Shown here one piece after another: positions 39,069 through 45,985 of a stretch of DNA of 64,000 bases. Source of the stretch: an uncultured Acidobacteriaceae bacterium. Lineage in GTDB: Bacteria; Acidobacteriota; Terriglobia; Terriglobales; Acidobacteriaceae. The notes under the pieces were generated by a model. That model was not told where the DNA came from, searched no databases, and saw only the letters and a program-made list of their open reading frames with translations. Every line of letters begins with the position of its first letter. Position 1 is the stretch's first letter. Position numbers and translations under genes: made by a program. Where the stretch lies: positions 658,238-722,237 of the forward strand of contig CAVYCQ010000003.1 in assembly GCA_963767045.1 (NCBI GenBank), given 5' to 3'.

Positions 39069-39163
39069 TGGCGGAAGTGCGTGCGAGTCGAACACACCGT
39101 CGCCCGTTAAGAACGACCACCGGTTTTGAAGACCGGGAGGATCACCGGAACCTAAGCACTTCC
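39069..39163 (-). tRNA. selC: tRNA-Sec (anticodon UCA)
   Basis: The reverse complement reads GGAAGTGC-TT-AGGTTC-CGGT-GATCCT-C-CCGGT-CTTCAAA-ACCGG-TG-GTCGTTC-TTAAC-GGGCGAC-G-GTGTG-TTCGACT-CGCAC-GCACTTCC-G-CCA. It is 95 nt, with an 8-bp acceptor, a 6-bp D stem (1 mismatch) with a 4-nt loop, a UCA anticodon, a 7-bp extra arm, a 5-bp T stem and an encoded CCA. This is the bacterial 8/5 tRNA-Sec architecture. Confidence 0.9.
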
Positions 39164-39195
39164 CTCGCCTGACCGGCATTCGAAGATTAGTGGTA

Positions 39196-39248
39196 TCCCA
39201 CTCAAGCCAAAACCGGGCTTGCATGGGGCACCCAGCCTTCGTTGCTGG
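39196..39248 (+). repeat. intergenic repeat family A, copy 2
   Basis: TCCCACTCAAGCC (39196-39208) / AAAACCG / GGCTTGCATGGGG (39216-39228), then CACCCAGCCTTCGTTGCTGG. Lies between selC and selD. Confidence 0.6.
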
Positions 39249-39282
39249 TAGCCTATTATCCTAACCGACGAGGAGTGATCGA

Positions 39283-40350
39283 TTGGCCGCTTCCACAGCA
39301 ATAAGACTGACCCAGCAGGTCAAAGCCGGCGGATGCGCGAGCAAACTGCCGCCAGGATTGCTGGCAGCAGTGCTTTCCAAGCTGCCGCGGCAGACGGATG
39401 CCAATCTTTTGGTTGGCTTCGATACCTCCGATGACGCCGGGGTTTATCGCATCGCACCGAACCTGGCCCTGGTGCAGACTGTGGACTTCTTTACCCCGCT
39501 GGTGGATGACCCCTATACCTTCGGCCAGATTGCGGCCACCAATGCGCTCAGTGACGTGTATGCCATGGGGGGACGGCCGGTTACTGCCCTCTCCGTCGTG
39601 TGTTTTCCCCAGGACGGGGACCTGAAGGTTCTTGAGGCGATTATGTGCGGGGGCATGGCGAAACTTGCCGAAGCGTCCTGCGTGGTCCTGGGTGGCCATA
39701 GCGTGCGCGATCAGGAGATCAAGTTTGGCTACGCGGTGACGGGGCTCATCGATCCCGATCGTGTGCTGACTAATGCGGGCGCGCAACAGGGCGACGATCT
39801 CATACTTACCAAGCCCATCGGCACAGGAGTGATTACGACTGCGCTGAAACAAGGAAAGGCCGAGCCGGCCTGGGTGGCGGAGGCAATCCGCTCCATGACC
39901 ACGCTCAACCGTTTGCCGTCGGAAGTGGTGACAGGCGCGGAGGGTGTTCACGCCATGACGGACGTAACCGGCTTTGGCCTGATGGGGCATGCTCGTGAGC
40001 TCGCCATCGGGAGCGGCATGCGTATTGAGATTTTTGTCGAGCAGGTGCCGCGGATAGAAGGCGCGCTCGATGCCATTGAACGGGGGGCTATTCCCGCCGG
40101 CCTGCTTGCCAATCGCGAGTTTGCCGAATGCGTAAGCGCGGATGCACCCGGGGCTGCGATTGCGGACGAGGTGCGCGCCCTGCTGTATGACCCGCAAACC
40201 GCAGGCGGTCTGCTGGTTTCCGTTGCGGCCGGCGGCTCCCACGCATTGTTGCAGGCTCTGAACGCTGCAGGTGTAGCCGCAGCCAGGATTGGCAGCGTGC
40301 TCGGCCCCTATGCCGCGGGCTCGGGCGAGCCGGCGATTCTGCTGCGATAA
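39283..40350 (+). CDS. selD: selenide, water dikinase (selenophosphate synthetase), Cys-type
   Basis: TTG 39283 with GAGGAG at 39270-39275. RLTQQVKAGGCASKL (Cys as TGC, plus Lys). DDAGVY, DFFTP.VDDPY.FG.IAA.NALSD..AMGG and GGHS blocks. Confidence 0.93.
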   Translation: MAASTAIRLTQQVKAGGCASKLPPGLLAAVLSKLPRQTDANLLVGFDTSDDAGVYRIAPNLALVQTVDFFTPLVDDPYTFGQIAATNALSDVYAMGGRPVTALSVVCFPQDGDLKVLEAIMCGGMAKLAEASCVVLGGHSVRDQEIKFGYAVTGLIDPDRVLTNAGAQQGDDLILTKPIGTGVITTALKQGKAEPAWVAEAIRSMTTLNRLPSEVVTGAEGVHAMTDVTGFGLMGHARELAIGSGMRIEIFVEQVPRIEGALDAIERGAIPAGLLANREFAECVSADAPGAAIADEVRALLYDPQTAGGLLVSVAAGGSHALLQALNAAGVAAARIGSVLGPYAAGSGEPAILLR

Positions 40351-40377
40351 ACAGAATCCAGACAGACTGGCAAGCTC

Positions 40378-41832
40378 ATGAAACCGAAGCAACCGGTGAC
40401 CGATCACAGCGAGGGCAATCTATACCGGCTGATTCCCTCTCTGCATGAGCTATTGCTGACGCCGGGATTTGCTGCACTGCTCGAGACCCACTCTCGCGAC
40501 TCGGCGACGTCTGCGGTGCGCGCCGTGCTGGCACGCCTCAAGCAGGAGATTGCAGAAGGCCATCACACCCAGGCAAGCCTGGAACGCGAGCTGGCATTGC
40601 TGCACATCACGGTTGCCGGCGAAATCGCCGAGGGTGCGCGCTACAGCTTGCAGCGCGTAATCAACGCCACCGGGGTGGTTCTGCATACAAATCTCGGGCG
40701 CGCTCCGTTGAGCCTCGCCGCACTGGCACACGTTGTCGAGACCGCGTGCGGATACTCAAACCTGGAACTCGATCTTGAATCGGGCGAGCGCAGCCGCCGC
40801 GATGTTCACGCGGAGGAACTTCTGCTGCGCGTTGTGGCGGCGCAGGGGGCAGCGGCCCTGGTCGTCAATAACTGTGCAGCAGCCACGTTTCTCGCCCTCA
40901 ACACGCTCGCGGAGGGTGGCGAGGTGATTGTCTCCCGCGGGGAGTTGGTGGAGATCGGCGGAGGGTTCCGCATCCCTGAGATTCTTGCTAAGTCCGGCGC
41001 CATGCTGCGTGAGGTGGGCACCACCAACCGCACCCGGCTGGCCGATTACGAAAATGCAATCTCACCCGCCACGCGGCTTATTTTGCGGGTGCACCAATCT
41101 AACTTCTCGATGGAAGGCTTCGTCGAACGACCCACGTTGCGCGACCTGGTTTCTCTTGGGATGCGCGCCAATCTGCCTGTATTTCACGATCAGGGAACCG
41201 GCTTGCTTGGCTCGCTCGAACTGCTCGGCATCGGCTCTGAGCCCACTTTGCCAGATAGCTTCCACATGGGTCCTGATCTGATTGCCGCCAGCGGTGACAA
41301 GCTGCTCGGCGGTCCACAATGCGGCTTGCTCATCGGGCGTACGGAGCTAGTGCAGCGCATCCGCAAGAATCCTCTGTACCGCACCTATCGTGTCGACAAG
41401 CTTACCTACGCGGCACTCGAAGCAACTCTCATGGACCACGTTGCGCAGAAAGATTCGAGCATCCCAGTGCAGAGAATGTTGAACATGGCAGCGGAAGAAG
41501 TATTCGCACGCTGTGAGCGGATCAGCCGCCAGGTCAACTCCGCCGAACTCGCCGCGCAGGCCGTACCGGTGGAGAGCCTGATCGGGGGCGGCACGGCGCC
41601 CACGGCCCGGCTGCAGAGCGCCGCAGTTTCTCTTCGTCACGCGCTGCTACAACCACAGGCACTGCTGCTGGCTCTTCGCCGGCTTGAGCCGCCGGTGGTG
41701 GGCCGCATCCACGAAGAGCAGGTCTTGCTCGATCTGCGCACTGTCGAACCGGAATTCGACGCAACCTTGGCCGAGTTACTGCAGCGGATTGACACTGGCT
41801 TGGTCACTGCGCAAAAGGCCGCGCACCAGTGA
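40378..41832 (+). CDS. selA: L-seryl-tRNA(Sec) selenium transferase
   Basis: LIPSLHELL.., VINATGVVLHTNLGRAP, NNCAAA and SGDKLLGGPQCGL (PLP lysine) blocks. Confidence 0.93.
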   Translation: MKPKQPVTDHSEGNLYRLIPSLHELLLTPGFAALLETHSRDSATSAVRAVLARLKQEIAEGHHTQASLERELALLHITVAGEIAEGARYSLQRVINATGVVLHTNLGRAPLSLAALAHVVETACGYSNLELDLESGERSRRDVHAEELLLRVVAAQGAAALVVNNCAAATFLALNTLAEGGEVIVSRGELVEIGGGFRIPEILAKSGAMLREVGTTNRTRLADYENAISPATRLILRVHQSNFSMEGFVERPTLRDLVSLGMRANLPVFHDQGTGLLGSLELLGIGSEPTLPDSFHMGPDLIAASGDKLLGGPQCGLLIGRTELVQRIRKNPLYRTYRVDKLTYAALEATLMDHVAQKDSSIPVQRMLNMAAEEVFARCERISRQVNSAELAAQAVPVESLIGGGTAPTARLQSAAVSLRHALLQPQALLLALRRLEPPVVGRIHEEQVLLDLRTVEPEFDATLAELLQRIDTGLVTAQKAAHQ

Positions 41833-41863
41833 CGCGAGCTGCGACGCATGGTTCAGCGTTAGC

Positions 41864-43759
41864 ATGACGCAACCGGTCAAGTCCGTAGTGATCGGCACCG
41901 CGGGTCATATCGATCACGGCAAGACTGCGTTAGTGCGGGCTCTTACGGGCATCGATGCAGATCGCTTGCCGGAAGAAAAGCGGCGCGGCATCACCATCGA
42001 TCTTGGCTTCGCCTTTCTCGAGGCTGTGTCTTCCTCTGGACGCCCACTCAGAATCAGCTTCGTCGATGTGCCCGGCCACAGCCTATTCATTCACAACATG
42101 CTCGCCGGGGCTGGATGCATCGGAGCCGTGATGCTGGTGATCTCCGCGCAGGAGGGTGTGAAACCACAAACCGTGGAGCATCTCGCTATTTGTAGCCTGC
42201 TTGGCGTGCGCACCGGCCTAACAGTGATTACCAAGATCGATACCGTTAGCCCCGCCCGTGCCGCACAAGTGGAGCTGGAGGTGAAGGAATTCCTTGGTGG
42301 AAGTTTTCTCGGCGATGGGCGTGCAGAGATTCTCGGGGTAAGCGCAATCACGGGGCAAGACATAGACCCGCTGCGGCGAAAGCTTATCGGGCTTGCCGAG
42401 GAGGCGCGCGACAGCGATCTCGATCACCTGCCCAGGCTCCCCATAGACCGCGCGTTCGTGATGAAGGGATTTGGCACCGTGGTTACGGGCACCCTGCTCT
42501 CAGGCAGTTTCCGTGCGGGACAATCGCTCACCCTGGAGCCGGGAGGACGTTCTGTGCGCGTGCGCGGAATGCAGAGCCATGGGCGCGCGGAAGATCTGGC
42601 TCTTTCCGGCTCGCGCGTTGCCTTGAACCTCTCAGGTGTTGAGGTGTCGGAAGTGAGCCGGGGGCAGACACTGGTTGCTCCTGAGACACTCACCGCTGTT
42701 ACTTCGATCGACGTGGAAGCCTGGTTGCTGCCTGGATCTTCGGCGCTGAAGCATGGCGCGGTGGTTCATTTCCACGCGTTTACCTCGAACGTCCTGGCCA
42801 CAGCACTGCTATATGGCCGCAGCAGGTTCGAGGCAGGCGCGAACAGGCTGCTCCGGATCAAACTCCAGACCCCTATCCTGCTCACCACCGGCGATCCATT
42901 CGTGCTGCGACAGGTTTCACCACCGGCGACCATTGGGGGTGGACGGGTGTTGGATGCGCACCCCGTGGCAAAACTGCGCAAAGCAGAAGTTATGGCGTGG
43001 CTGGAATCTTTGCAAAGCGCCCCGGAAGGAGAACGGCTTTTCCTTCGGGTAGCGCGCCGCGGCACAAAAGGGCTTACACTCCAGCGTCTGATGGCAGAAA
43101 CCGGCCTGGCCCGCGAAGCCGCCGAGCGCCGGCTGCAGCCCCTTATCCTAAGCCATCGTTTGCTGCAGATACCGGGCGAGCTTCTCTTTGCCGGAGCGGC
43201 CCTCGATGCAGCCTGCAAAAGTATTGGCAGAGTCTTACAACAGCACGTGAGCGGTCTCAAGCGATCCGAGCTCAGAAGCCGGACCTCGCTCACTCCGGAG
43301 GTTCTCGATTTTTCGCTCCAACGGCTTGCCGGCTCGCAGGAGATCCGGCTAAAAGGCGAGCTGGTCTATCCCGCGGGAGCCGGCACTCCTCCGTCCGCTC
43401 CTGAAGATGCAAAGCTTTCCACGATCGCGGCCGTCTACCGCAAGGCTGGGCTGTCTGCTCCCTTGATCTCTGAAGTAGCGGCCACGCTGAAGTGCAAGGA
43501 GAGCGAATTGCGTGCGCTGATCACATTGCTGCTGCGGGAAAAGATCCTCGTGCCGATGGGAAGCGAGAATCTGCTGATGCACCATGAAGCGCTCGATCAA
43601 CTACGCGCCACGATAAGCGAACTTCGCGGCCAGACTATCGATGTAGGCCGCTTCAAACAGATAACCGGCTTGTCTAGAAAGTACGCCATCCCCTTGTTGG
43701 AGTATCTCGATCGGCAAAGGATTACGCGTAAAATAGGCGATCAGCGCCTGGTGATCTAG
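41864..43759 (+). CDS. selB: selenocysteine-specific translation elongation factor
   Basis: VIGTAGHIDHGKTALV..LTG...DRL.EEK.RGITIDLGFA and DVPGH GTPase motifs. C-terminal winged-helix region ends ..AIPLLEYLDRQRITRKIGDQRLV. ATG 41864 lies inside a longer track ORF. Confidence 0.93.
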   Translation: MTQPVKSVVIGTAGHIDHGKTALVRALTGIDADRLPEEKRRGITIDLGFAFLEAVSSSGRPLRISFVDVPGHSLFIHNMLAGAGCIGAVMLVISAQEGVKPQTVEHLAICSLLGVRTGLTVITKIDTVSPARAAQVELEVKEFLGGSFLGDGRAEILGVSAITGQDIDPLRRKLIGLAEEARDSDLDHLPRLPIDRAFVMKGFGTVVTGTLLSGSFRAGQSLTLEPGGRSVRVRGMQSHGRAEDLALSGSRVALNLSGVEVSEVSRGQTLVAPETLTAVTSIDVEAWLLPGSSALKHGAVVHFHAFTSNVLATALLYGRSRFEAGANRLLRIKLQTPILLTTGDPFVLRQVSPPATIGGGRVLDAHPVAKLRKAEVMAWLESLQSAPEGERLFLRVARRGTKGLTLQRLMAETGLAREAAERRLQPLILSHRLLQIPGELLFAGAALDAACKSIGRVLQQHVSGLKRSELRSRTSLTPEVLDFSLQRLAGSQEIRLKGELVYPAGAGTPPSAPEDAKLSTIAAVYRKAGLSAPLISEVAATLKCKESELRALITLLLREKILVPMGSENLLMHHEALDQLRATISELRGQTIDVGRFKQITGLSRKYAIPLLEYLDRQRITRKIGDQRLVI

Positions 43760-43760
43760 C

Positions 43761-44372
43761 ATGGATTGTGCTAATCTTTGGCTCGGAACCATGACGGACC
43801 CTGAGAAGAAAATCGATCTGATCGAGGATGCTGACGCGACGGGCGAGGTAGCGCAGGTCTATGACGAATGGCGCGCCCATTCGGGCCGCCAGCAGATGCC
43901 CGGCATTCTCAAGTGCTTTAGCCATCGCCCTGATTTCCTGCGCGAAGTCATGAGCTTCAGCAACACCGTCCATTTTTCTGAAGGGCACCTCACGCGCAGG
44001 ACCAAGGAAGCGATCGCCAGTTGGGTCTCTTGGCTCAATCGCTGTCCCTATTGACTGGATTCGCATGCTTACTTCCTGCGGGTTCAGGGAGCAGAAGAAC
44101 AAACAGTCCAGGCGCTGGCGGAGGGCAAGCTCGACGAGGCAGCACTCGACGACGCGCACCGTGCGCTGCTGGAGTATGTCACTAAGGTGACCGAGGCGGC
44201 GTATCGCACCACCCCGGAAGATGTGCAAAAACTGCGTCAACATGGTTGGAGCGAGCCTCAAATTGCGGAAGCCGTATACATCACTGCGCTATTTGCCTTT
44301 TTCAATCGCGTGGCGGACGCCTTCGGTATTGCGCCGCAGGGCTATCTTGAAATGAACCAGATGACTAAGTGA
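43761..44372 (+). CDS. AhpD/carboxymuconolactone-decarboxylase-family selenoprotein (TGA 44052..44054 read as Sec; motif C-P-Y-U-L-D-S-H)
   Basis: Track ORFs 43761..44054 and 44187..44372 share a frame, and the 132 nt between them has no further stop. The junction WLNRCPYULDSHAYF aligns with the AhpD core C-x-x-C-x-x-x-H. SECIS-like hairpin at 44072..44091. Lies immediately 3' of selB. Alternative start ATG 43791. Confidence 0.8.
44072..44091 (+). promoter_or_regulatory. candidate bacterial SECIS hairpin for the AhpD-like gene
   Basis: CUUCCUG (44072-44078) pairs with CAGGGAG (44085-44091), with one G-U pair. Loop CGGGUU (44079-44084) begins 24 nt after the UGA. Confidence 0.55.
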
Positions 44373-44420: not shown

Positions 44421-44490
44421 TGACTGGACGGGTGCCCCAGGTTCGCGCCAGCGTACCTGGGGAGAAAGTGGTTTTTTCGATTGCTTTCAC
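44421..44490 (-). repeat. intergenic repeat family B, partial inverted copy 4; in the plus sense it looks like a terminator
   Basis: Stem CCCCAGGT (44435-44442) / ACCTGGGG (44455-44462) with a 12-nt loop. In the plus sense it is followed by GTTTTTTC (44470-44477). The core GGACGGGTGCCCC is the reverse complement of the family core. Confidence 0.55.
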
Positions 44491-44520
44491 TCGTTCCAAC
44501 CGCGACTTGTTCGATAGGAT

Positions 44521-44599
44521 AAGAGCTTTCGAAGGGCTTCGCCCGTCTTATTCTTACCAGGTACGCCTTGGCGAACCTGGGGCACCCGCCCAGTTTCTC
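44521..44599 (+). repeat. intergenic repeat family B, copy 3
   Basis: AAGAGCTTTCGAAGGGCTTCGCCCGTCTTATTCTTA, then stem CCAGGT (44557-44562) / ACCTGG (44575-44580), then GGGGCACCCGCCCAGTTTC. Confidence 0.6.
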
Positions 44600-44731: not shown

Positions 44732-45985
44732 ATGGTGATTGCCACCGAAGTCCGCACGAAGAGAAGACTACGTAATTTGGTTCCGGGGGCGGGCCTGCTG
44801 TTGGCAGCACTTGCTACTTTGGCACTTGCGCTTTATCCCATCTACGTCATACGGCCCTTCGTAGAGCAAAAGCCGGCGGACCTTGCGCGCGCCCTTTGGG
44901 TTCAGCTGCACGACAAGGTAATCTTGTTTGCGCTTTTTTTCCTGATCACGCTGTGTGGGCTTTTTCTCTGGCGGCGTGCGGGCTGGGTGGTGCGACTTCT
45001 GCTGGTGGGGCCGGCCATGGCGATTGCTCTGATCGCTGTCGGCGCGGCATTTTTCAATCCCTACGAACAGCTCATGTTTCATCCGTTCGGAGAGCCGCAC
45101 TACGTGGCTATTCAGCAAGCCGGTATCGACGCTAAAGACATGGTCATCGCGGTCACCCTGGGCGGAGAGAGCCGCGCGTATCCCATCCGAGAAATGGGCT
45201 ATCACCACGTCGTAAATGATCGCCTTCATCAGCTGCCCATCGTCGTCACTTATTGAACGCTCTGCCACACGGGTCTGGTCTGGACCCGCACCATACAGGG
45301 GCGTGACTTGCACTTTCACCTGGCCGGCATCAACAATCAGAATTTCCTGATGCGCGACCAGGAGACAGGCAGCTTCTGGCAGCAGATCAACGGGACCGCG
45401 ATCGCCGGCCCGCTGAAAGGCTCAAAGCTCACGTTGGTTCCCCAGGATGAACTCACGTTCGGGTTGTGGAAGAAAGAACAACCGAACGGCACTGTGCTCG
45501 CTCCTCTGAGGCGCGATGCAGCCCACTATGAAAAAGCGACTTGGGAAAGTGAGATTGCAAAACTGCCGACTGTGATTCACGCGACCAAGGGGACACTTCC
45601 CGACCGGGAAACCATCCTGGGCGTGTCGTTGAACGGAGCCGCGCGTGCCTTTCCAGTGAGCAAGCTGACGCTACAGTCTCCGGTGCTGATCGATGACGTC
45701 GGAGAGAAGCCGATCATGCTCGTGCTTGGGCCAGATGGCAAATCGATCCGTGTCTTCTCGCGCCAGGTGGGTGCAAACGCGCTCGAGTTTTATGGCCGTG
45801 GCGGGGGAAACACTGGCGAGCCTTGGGTACTTCTGGACTCCAATACGCTCAGCGACTGGAGCTTCGAAGGGTGCGCGGTTTCTGGAGATTTCAAAGGACA
45901 GTGTCTGACACGGATCGATGCTCTGAAAGACTTCTGGTTCGATTGGCAGCACTACCATCCAGGCAGCAGTATCTATCGGCATTGA
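44732..45985 (+). CDS. membrane-anchored DUF3179-family protein, candidate selenoprotein (TGA 45254..45256 read as Sec; motif U-T-L-C)
   Basis: Track ORFs 44732..45256 and 45308..45985 share a frame, with 17 open codons between them. Junction HHVVNDRLHQLPIVVTY-U-TLCHTGLVW, versus the family pattern VND..G.PV.VTYCPLC.T. Downstream DUF3179 blocks LMRDQETGSFWQQ..G.AI.GPLKG and C-terminal DFWFDWQHYHPGSSIY. Three N-terminal TM helices. Hairpin at 45270..45288. Confidence 0.78.
45270..45288 (+). promoter_or_regulatory. candidate bacterial SECIS hairpin for the DUF3179 gene
   Basis: CGGGUCU (45270-45276) pairs with GGACCCG (45282-45288), 7 bp including one G-U pair. Apical loop GGUCU (45277-45281) begins 20 nt after the UGA. 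Confidence 0.55.

Follow-up and report, generated by a model that had tools for sequence, protein, structure and literature searches.

A gene that begins directly behind selB and is cut in two by an in-frame TGA poses a plain question: does that codon end a protein, mark a dead gene, or specify selenocysteine (Sec)? We addressed it in a 64,000-nucleotide stretch of DNA from an uncultured Acidobacteriaceae bacterium (assembly GCA_963767045.1, contig CAVYCQ010000003.1, positions 658,238 to 722,237), hereafter the window, in which two open reading frames (ORFs) between positions 43761 and 44372 had been read, in an original prediction made from the letters of the window, as one AhpD/CMD-family gene with a recoded UGA in its active site. 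Our best explanation is that the gene encodes a 193-residue, all-helical AhpD-like (TIGR01926/COG2128) redox protein in which the second active-site residue of the C-P-Y-x motif is Sec. We put the probability of this explanation at roughly 0.9.

The interrupted frame and its relatives

The argument turns on three features:

43791..44372, forward strand: predicted AhpD-like (TIGR01926) selenoprotein gene, with C85-P-Y-U88 and H92; its frame is open upstream to the ATG at 43761
44052..44054, forward strand: putative UGA Sec codon, Sec88 (codon 98 in the 203-residue reading), placed by conservation and alignment
44072..44091, forward strand: putative bacterial Sec insertion sequence (SECIS) hairpin, CUUCCUG/CGGGUU/CAGGGAG, placed by the criteria for bacterial SECIS (bSECIS) elements and by frozen synonymous sites

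Positions 43761..44372 of the forward strand form one frame of 204 codons whose sole internal stop is the TGA at 44052..44054, in the context ..SWLNRCPY-TGA-LDSHAYFLRVQG.. (R-C-P-Y-TGA-L-D-S-H); the frame closes with a second TGA at 44370..44372. As first described, the ORFs 43761..44054 and 44187..44372 share this frame and are joined by 44 open codons (44055..44186). The original prediction had the gene start at 43761 and yield a protein of 203 aa. Position 43761 is indeed the first ATG, some 1-2 nt past the selB stop (TAG, 43757..43759), and read-through from it is uninterrupted; the conserved start, however, is the ATG at 43791, because relatives carry in-frame stops between the equivalent of 43761 and the second ATG and share the N-terminus MTDPEKK. 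Translation thus probably starts at 43791, 31 nt after selB, and the likely product has 193 aa with Sec at residue 88.

Homologs came from two scans. The first, covering one genome per bacterial species, returned 72 loci, 70 of them with the motif, mostly labelled as Acidobacteriaceae or Terriglobales metagenome-assembled genomes but including the cultured Occallatibacter savannae AB23. The second searched metagenomes, with more divergent relatives as queries, and yielded 81 genes at 80 loci. The codon aligned with 44052..44054 is TGA in 70/70 genomic and 81/81 metagenomic homologous genes (151/151), and the pattern that had been named as fatal to the proposal, an intact Cys gene in relatives beside a decayed copy here, is not what we found. 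Exactly 105 codons follow the TGA in 65 of 71 gene copies (the 70 genomic loci and the window), the other six being of another length. Pairwise ratios of non-synonymous to synonymous substitution rates (dN/dS) against the window were 0.086 over the 80 codons before the TGA and 0.119 over the 105 after it (143 pairs), i.e., purifying selection acts alike on both sides of the codon.

Recoding on this scale might reflect a genetic code in which TGA is sense throughout. We tried and rejected reassignment of TGA under code 4 or code 25, as the AhpD-like gene and 12 of the 34 long open frames in the window end in TGA. The earlier observation that the codon is otherwise an ordinary stop stands: it ends selA, the AhpD-like gene itself and a DUF3179 gene downstream of it as well as those 12 long frames, and the terminal TGA of the AhpD-like gene is also found in 33 relatives. 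Since TGA doubles as an ordinary stop, even of the very gene in which it lies, the recoding must be local.

Among the best 120 homologs listed, 47 read C-x-Y-C and 71 read C-P-Y-W. The W of C-P-Y-W-L-D-S-H is a TGA translated with code 4, proven by comparing two of these proteins with their loci (P0001 with L154, and P0006 with L035); on the contig of P0001 the terminal TGA was also read as W. The Cys-type homologs (C-x-Y-C-L-D-S-H) are some 57-66% identical and are single proteins of 190-200 aa; one of them, encoded at locus L153, has TGT at the aligned codon and no sel genes nearby. In a midpoint-rooted neighbour-joining tree 44 of the 47 Cys-type proteins fell into one pure clade, an outcome that depends on the root, and by these sequences the Sec-type and Cys-type proteins appear largely separated.

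One protein sits apart from this pattern. P0032, a partial sequence of 159 aa, is of Cys type (C-P-Y-C-L-A-S-H) and nested among Sec-type proteins, with 84% identity to the window protein and the Sec-type P0002 as nearest neighbour. Either Sec was recently replaced by Cys in this protein, or the database entry, for which no contig is on record, is an artefact that shows U as C.

The hairpin and the selenocysteine machinery

Bacterial decoding of UGA as Sec calls on a hairpin just downstream of the codon. The one proposed at the outset, 44072..44091, has 7 bp (one of them G-U) and a loop, CGGGUU, that starts 24 nt past the UGA, as had been stated. The consensus bSECIS criteria (PMC13188914, Fig. 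2) describe an apical loop of 3-9 nt on a stem of 4-16 bp, a G at one of the first two loop positions, with G or U as the usual next base, a distance of 16-37 nt from UGA to loop, and a minimum free energy of -7.5 kcal/mol or lower. The window hairpin agrees with all four: its loop of 6 nt has G at position 2 and lies 24 nt from the UGA, its stem has 7 bp, and 44070..44093 folds at -8.6 kcal/mol. Of 152 Sec-type genes, 151 agree likewise.

A stronger sign comes from codon choice. Synonymous-codon entropy, computed on 65 ungapped genomic homologs with the window included and normalised, was 0.13 over codons +6..+13, which are exactly the hairpin, vs 0.73 elsewhere, and these codons form the lowest-entropy 8-codon window of the gene. 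Over the hairpin TAC, TTC, CTG and CAG are each used in 65/65 sequences, despite the availability of six Leu codons. Variation in the loop is limited to two positions, CG[G/U]GU[U/C], and the G at loop position 2 is kept. The Cys-type homolog at L153 uses other codons at the hairpin site and forms no hairpin there (-2.0 kcal/mol). Taken with the conserved TGA and with the TGA stops elsewhere, the constrained hairpin supports the idea, put forward in the original prediction, of a local recoding that depends on a SECIS. Compared with the SECIS elements of E. coli fdhF and fdnG and with the bSECIS consensus, the hairpin is alike in lying in the coding region just 3' of the UGA and in its small apical loop; it differs from the E. 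coli elements in its shorter stem (7 bp), the lack of an obvious bulged U, and an unrelated sequence.

A separate observation concerns a 2.3 kb metagenome contig, Ga0126371_10155406 (locus L137), which carries two Sec-type copies of the AhpD-like gene, each with the TGA. In one copy the hairpin is altered to CUUCCUU-GGUGUG-CAGGGAG, with the closing pair lost; the other has a C-G to U-G replacement, the sole stem change seen anywhere. Perhaps the gene was recently duplicated here and one of the copies is drifting.

The genes for Sec synthesis and delivery are found next to the AhpD-like gene:

39069..39163, reverse strand: selC, tRNA-Sec with anticodon UCA (ARAGORN tRNA-SeC; RF01852 72.7 bits, gathering score 47)
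39283..40350 (start approximate), forward strand: selD, selenophosphate synthetase, Cys form (..KAGGCASK..; TIGR00476 369 bits, cutoff 125)
40378..41832, forward strand: selA, selenocysteine synthase, ending in an ordinary TGA (TIGR00474 503.5 bits; Pfam SelA 409 bits)
41864..43759, forward strand: selB, Sec-specific elongation factor (TIGR00475 354 bits; PF09107 SelB-wing_3 66 bits)

All four lie within 39069..43759, directly upstream of the AhpD-like gene. The tRNA takes the canonical 8/5 form, 8 bp in the acceptor stem and 5 bp in the T stem, and its variable arm is long. The selB frame has an in-frame ATG at 41864 (MTQPVKSVVIGTAGH..), and the C-terminal winged helix of its product is the SECIS-binding SelB-wing_3 domain. 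Association with sel genes extends to the relatives: of 72 related genome loci, 51 have selB upstream of the AhpD-like gene, and a few others have selA there. The link to the Sec machinery that had been drawn from the position of the gene behind selB is therefore well founded, all four factors adjoining it upstream. Judging from the spacing, there is probably a selD-selA-selB-ahpD-like transcript with the AhpD-like gene as its final cistron.

On the established bacterial Sec pathway, SelD would supply selenophosphate and SelA would convert Ser-tRNA-Sec to Sec-tRNA-Sec. The C-terminal winged helices of SelB would then bind the hairpin at 44072..44091 while the ribosome stands on the UGA at 44052..44054, and SelB would deliver Sec-tRNA-Sec to it. 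The UGA at 44370..44372, which is without a hairpin, would terminate the protein. It is from this arrangement of codon, hairpin and machinery that we infer the insertion of Sec at the internal UGA.

Could the UGA be read as an amino acid other than Sec? A selC*-type tRNA-Cys, an allo-tRNA or a near-cognate Trp or Cys tRNA would place Cys, Ser or Trp at residue 88, and Acidobacteria do carry tRNA-Sec-like allo-tRNAs able to act as suppressors (PMC5389517). We nevertheless consider this very improbable. The tRNA at the locus is a canonical 8/5 tRNA-Sec with 72.7 bits to RF01852, and it adjoins selA and selD, which are known here only for making Sec-tRNA-Sec, whereas the selC* tRNA-Cys was reported in other phyla and is accompanied by selB* or cysS*. 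A hairpin frozen at SECIS spacing is needed for delivery by SelB, not for a plain suppressor. Were Cys sufficient, TGT or TGC would be one mutation away, yet the TGA is kept throughout.

Fold, active site and the weighing of the evidence

All profile scoring was done with the TGA read as Cys. The 203-aa reading then scores 102.1 bits against TIGR01926 (peroxidase-related enzyme; cutoff 81.8), in a match that spans its residues 18-192 and profile positions 3-175 of 178. It also scores 58.6 bits against PF02627 (CMD; cutoff 23) and 49.3 bits against TIGR00778 (AhpD core domain; cutoff 27.8), which bears out the original assignment to the AhpD/CMD families. For two further models the score was below cutoff: TIGR00777, the M. 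tuberculosis-type ahpD (21.5 bits vs 191.95), and NF041238, the CFYUT selenoprotein (61.7 bits vs 175, with only profile positions 174-337 of 357 matched).

By sequence, the closest solved structures are 2prr, 2pfx, 2oyo, 3c1l and 6k40, with E values from 1e-18 to 6e-13 over near full length. In their C-x-Y-C-x3-H motif it is the second Cys that lines up with the TGA, as in nqClyCvvaH (2prr) and nkCfyClvaH (2pfx), and likewise in the 47 Cys-type homologs, in keeping with the earlier placement of the TGA at the second Cys of C-x-x-C. An AlphaFold2 model of P0001, a homolog of 90% identity, reached a predicted local distance difference test score (pLDDT) of 90.8 and a predicted template modelling score (pTM) of 0.86. 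It is a single all-helical domain, unbroken at the TGA position, in which helix 86-98 has C85-x-x-U88 at its N-terminus. Its best matches in the PDB are all proteins of the CMD/AhpD fold, with template modelling (TM) scores of ~0.8 to 2prr, 6k40, 2oyo and 3c1l (0.76-0.85 across solved AhpD-like relatives), vs ~0.55 to M. tuberculosis AhpD (1knc, 1gu9) and 0.75 to the debrominase Bmp8.

These results bear on a second alternative, in which termination at the UGA dominates: an 87-aa fragment, possibly with a separate C-terminal ORF from the GTG at 44187, would be the functional product, and the hairpin would act in mRNA stability or attenuation. An ORF with a GTG start does exist at 44187..44372, and bacterial Sec insertion is generally inefficient, so some truncated product is to be expected. 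Against this, the stretch of 44 codons that separates the two ORFs is conserved in its protein sequence and encodes both the catalytic L-D-S-H and helix 86-98, the 87-aa fragment would be half of one compact domain that is modelled as one unit at a pLDDT of 90.8, and the Cys-type homologs are single proteins. We see little chance that termination is the main outcome. That the gene is dead, i.e., that a nonsense mutation in a former Cys codon or a sequencing error left a fragment of 87-97 aa, has next to no probability: gene calls do stop at this codon (a 90-aa hypothetical protein in RefSeq for Occallatibacter savannae and 87-aa fragments from the Joint Genome Institute, JGI) and other genes of the window end normally in TGA, yet the same TGA stands in 151/151 independent genes, 105 downstream codons are open in 65/71 copies at a dN/dS of 0.12, like the upstream half, and the Pfam and TIGR01926 domains span the TGA.

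Reading the gene as an AhpD-like selenoprotein also agrees with what is known of such proteins. An AhpD-like protein (COG2128) with CXXU was a new selenoprotein family in the 2005 analysis of the Sargasso Sea (27 sequences; PMC1088965, Table 3), was reported from two sequenced genomes in 2006 (PMC1794560), ranked fourth in abundance among the selenoprotein families of the Global Ocean Sampling data as CxxU (299 sequences; PMC2398784, Table 2), and is listed under TIGR01926, CxxU, in reviews of 2022 and 2026 (PMC9312934, PMC13188914). This answers a question that the original prediction had left open, namely which Cys is replaced in the known AhpD-like selenoproteins: it is the second, as here. 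By every testable criterion the gene belongs to this catalogued family (COG2128 YciW), with which it shares the TIGR01926 model, Sec at the second CxxC position, the kind of downstream stem-loop and the existence of Cys homologs. It differs in that its relatives are mostly soil and peat Acidobacteriaceae (Terriglobales) rather than marine plankton, Clostridia or Deltaproteobacteria, and in that the gene tails a sel operon. NF041238, the CFYUT selenoprotein known from the Sargasso Sea as 'hypothetical protein 1', and NF041047, the 'distant AhpD homolog', have a CMD-fold core and CxxU in common with it; NF041238 is nonetheless another subfamily, as the gene matches only its C-terminal half and is not a member.

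What would Sec do in such a protein? In M. tuberculosis AhpD a relay of Glu118, Cys130, His132, Cys133 and His137 activates the CxxC, and the corresponding relay in P. aeruginosa PA0269 is Glu36, Cys48, Tyr50, Cys51 and His55 (PMC3141380). The residues E73, C85, Y87 and H92 are invariant across 43 Sec- and Cys-type homologs, Glu73 lies 12 residues before Cys85, and Glu73/Cys85/Tyr87/Sec88/His92 have the spacing of both relays. The solved relatives, including 2prr (Ralstonia eutropha), 2pfx, 2oyo (Deinococcus geothermalis), 3c1l and 6k40 (D. radiodurans), likewise have C-x-Y-C-x3-H with a Glu 12 residues upstream; they differ in carrying Cys in place of Sec, are 24-26% identical and are mostly uncharacterised. 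M. tuberculosis AhpD, an adaptor that reduces AhpC, is alike in its CxxC...H relay, and its attacking Cys133 matches the Sec position here; the differences are the TM score of ~0.55, the place of the motif elsewhere in the chain and a middle His132 where the window protein has Tyr.

In the M. tuberculosis protein Cys133, at the base of the cleft, forms a mixed disulfide with AhpC, and Cys130 is partly buried (PMC6626918). As it is the second Cys that attacks AhpC, Sec would here replace the attacking nucleophile, in line with how Sec is commonly employed. If the homology to M. tuberculosis AhpD and PA0269 is a guide, Sec88 would be activated by the Glu73/Tyr87/His92 relay and, as an exposed nucleophile, would attack an oxidised substrate, perhaps a peroxiredoxin disulfide, a sulfenate or a hydroperoxide. 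Cys85, likely the resolving residue on the same analogy, would then resolve the selenenylsulfide.

A number of results weigh against parts of this explanation. Hairpin stability was not significant against shuffled sequences (z of -0.14, -1.9 and -1.3 when 36, 24 and 60 nt were folded). No compensatory covariation was found, the stem being invariant but for one C-G to U-G, the 81 divergent metagenomic genes included; since it is nearly invariant, covariation cannot be claimed. A scan across the window, which has 59% GC, found that some 20 of about 75 TGA-interrupted frames pass the bSECIS criteria. Nearly all of the passing frames are overlapping and non-coding, and only the AhpD-like and DUF3179 genes have domain support. 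As the criteria pass about one quarter of arbitrary frames, they have low specificity in GC-rich genomes unless joined by comparative support. Rfam returned no SECIS match, either for the whole window at the gathering threshold or for 43990..44160 at E <= 10, the hits being chance ones (mir-4520, TCL6_3); bacterial SECIS elements are not captured by Rfam models. As to the chemistry, no peroxiredoxin or AhpC partner was seen among the large ORFs scanned from 30974 to 55714, the neighbours being sel genes, DUF3179 and DinB. In the AhpD of B. thailandensis the first Cys was reported to be the more important (PMC6626918), and a nucleophile at the second position is thus not universal. The CMD fold also hosts other thiol chemistry, e.g., that of the Bmp8 debrominase.

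It follows that the case for a SECIS is one of conservation, in the TGA (151/151) and in the frozen synonymous sites; taken alone, the hairpin is weak support. Because no peroxiredoxin gene lies nearby, the solved relatives are uncharacterised and the fold hosts other chemistry, a role as AhpC reductase is only an analogy for the AhpD-like Sec protein.

A second candidate selenoprotein, annotation and surroundings

Three further features lie downstream of the AhpD-like gene:

44423..44594, no strand assigned: inverted repeat resembling a repetitive extragenic palindrome (REP-like), arms 44423-44466 and 44551-44594 (repeat search; spacer fold z = -4.2)
44732..45985, forward strand: predicted DUF3179 selenoprotein gene (PF11376 205.8 bits with TGA as Cys; one domain, residues 121-411)
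45270..45288, forward strand: candidate SECIS of the DUF3179 gene, CGGGUCU/GGUCU/GGACCCG, 7 bp (-11.4 kcal/mol; loop 20 nt after the UGA)

The DUF3179 gene appears to repeat the pattern. Its in-frame TGA at 45254..45256 lies in T-Y-U-T-L-C-H (UxxC) and is conserved in 25/25 occurrences (24 related loci and the window), and the nucleotide sequence of its hairpin is invariant in the same 25. DUF3179 is catalogued as a UxxC/T selenoprotein family (PMC13188914, PMC9312934). From a hydrophobic N-terminus read by eye, the protein is apparently membrane-anchored.

A broader idea, which we regard as unlikely, is that in this group of mostly Acidobacteriaceae genomes selC, selD-selA-selB and the AhpD-like gene as their client, often with a DUF3179 gene as a further one, make up a self-contained Sec cassette, possibly with SelB and SECIS coupled in cis on their own mRNA. 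If so, one or two redox proteins might be the main reason for keeping the costly Sec machinery, and a SECIS ~300 nt past the selB stop could let newly made SelB load in cis. The supply of SelB might then be coupled to its main client, or feedback might act on expression of the operon, by analogy with E. coli, in which a SECIS-like element controls selAB.

How such genes are annotated is a more practical matter. In RefSeq the ortholog (locus L048, 6001-6588, NZ_QFFY01000002.1) of the one cultured relative, O. savannae AB23, is the 90-aa hypothetical protein WP_162601318.1, which ends at the Sec codon. JGI gives 87-aa fragments named 'alkylhydroperoxidase family enzyme', or reads the TGA as Trp with code 4 in C-P-Y-W-L-D-S-H (e.g., L154, 626-1207). 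Fragments of the window's own protein were not found in the protein collection. Through such truncated or Trp-read entries protein databases largely fail to show a selenoprotein that occurs in at least 70 genomes at species level. The scientific addition is small, as AhpD-like CxxU proteins have been catalogued for twenty years and DUF3179 is also a listed family; the practical value lies in the annotation of a selenoprotein that is widespread in soil Acidobacteriaceae. A sel operon with its own client gene is in addition a natural example, compact enough that Sec insertion in Acidobacteria could be tested on it.

Two minor elements flank the AhpD-like gene. In the spacer between the selB stop and the ATG at 43791, which is weakly coding or non-coding, TGCTAATCTTTGGC at 43769..43782 recurs in the closest relatives (L003-L011) with only slight changes. 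Given its likeness to an extended -10 element (TG-n-TAATCT), it could provide the AhpD-like gene with an internal promoter; a consensus promoter and terminator scan gave nothing informative around the gene and did not call TGCTAATCTTTGGC. Behind the gene, the 360-nt spacer holds a 44-nt imperfect inverted repeat, the REP-like feature listed above, which consists of two copies of a palindromic unit in inverted orientation. From its position the palindrome at 44423..44594 may end the sel-ahpD transcript, though the consensus terminator scan did not call it. The palindromic unit is absent from all 153 related loci and is therefore a lineage-specific insertion. It measures ~35 nt (GGACGGGTGCCCCAGGTTCGCGCCAGC..ACCTGGGG), and near the start of the window the reverse strand carries a third copy, at 1396-1416.

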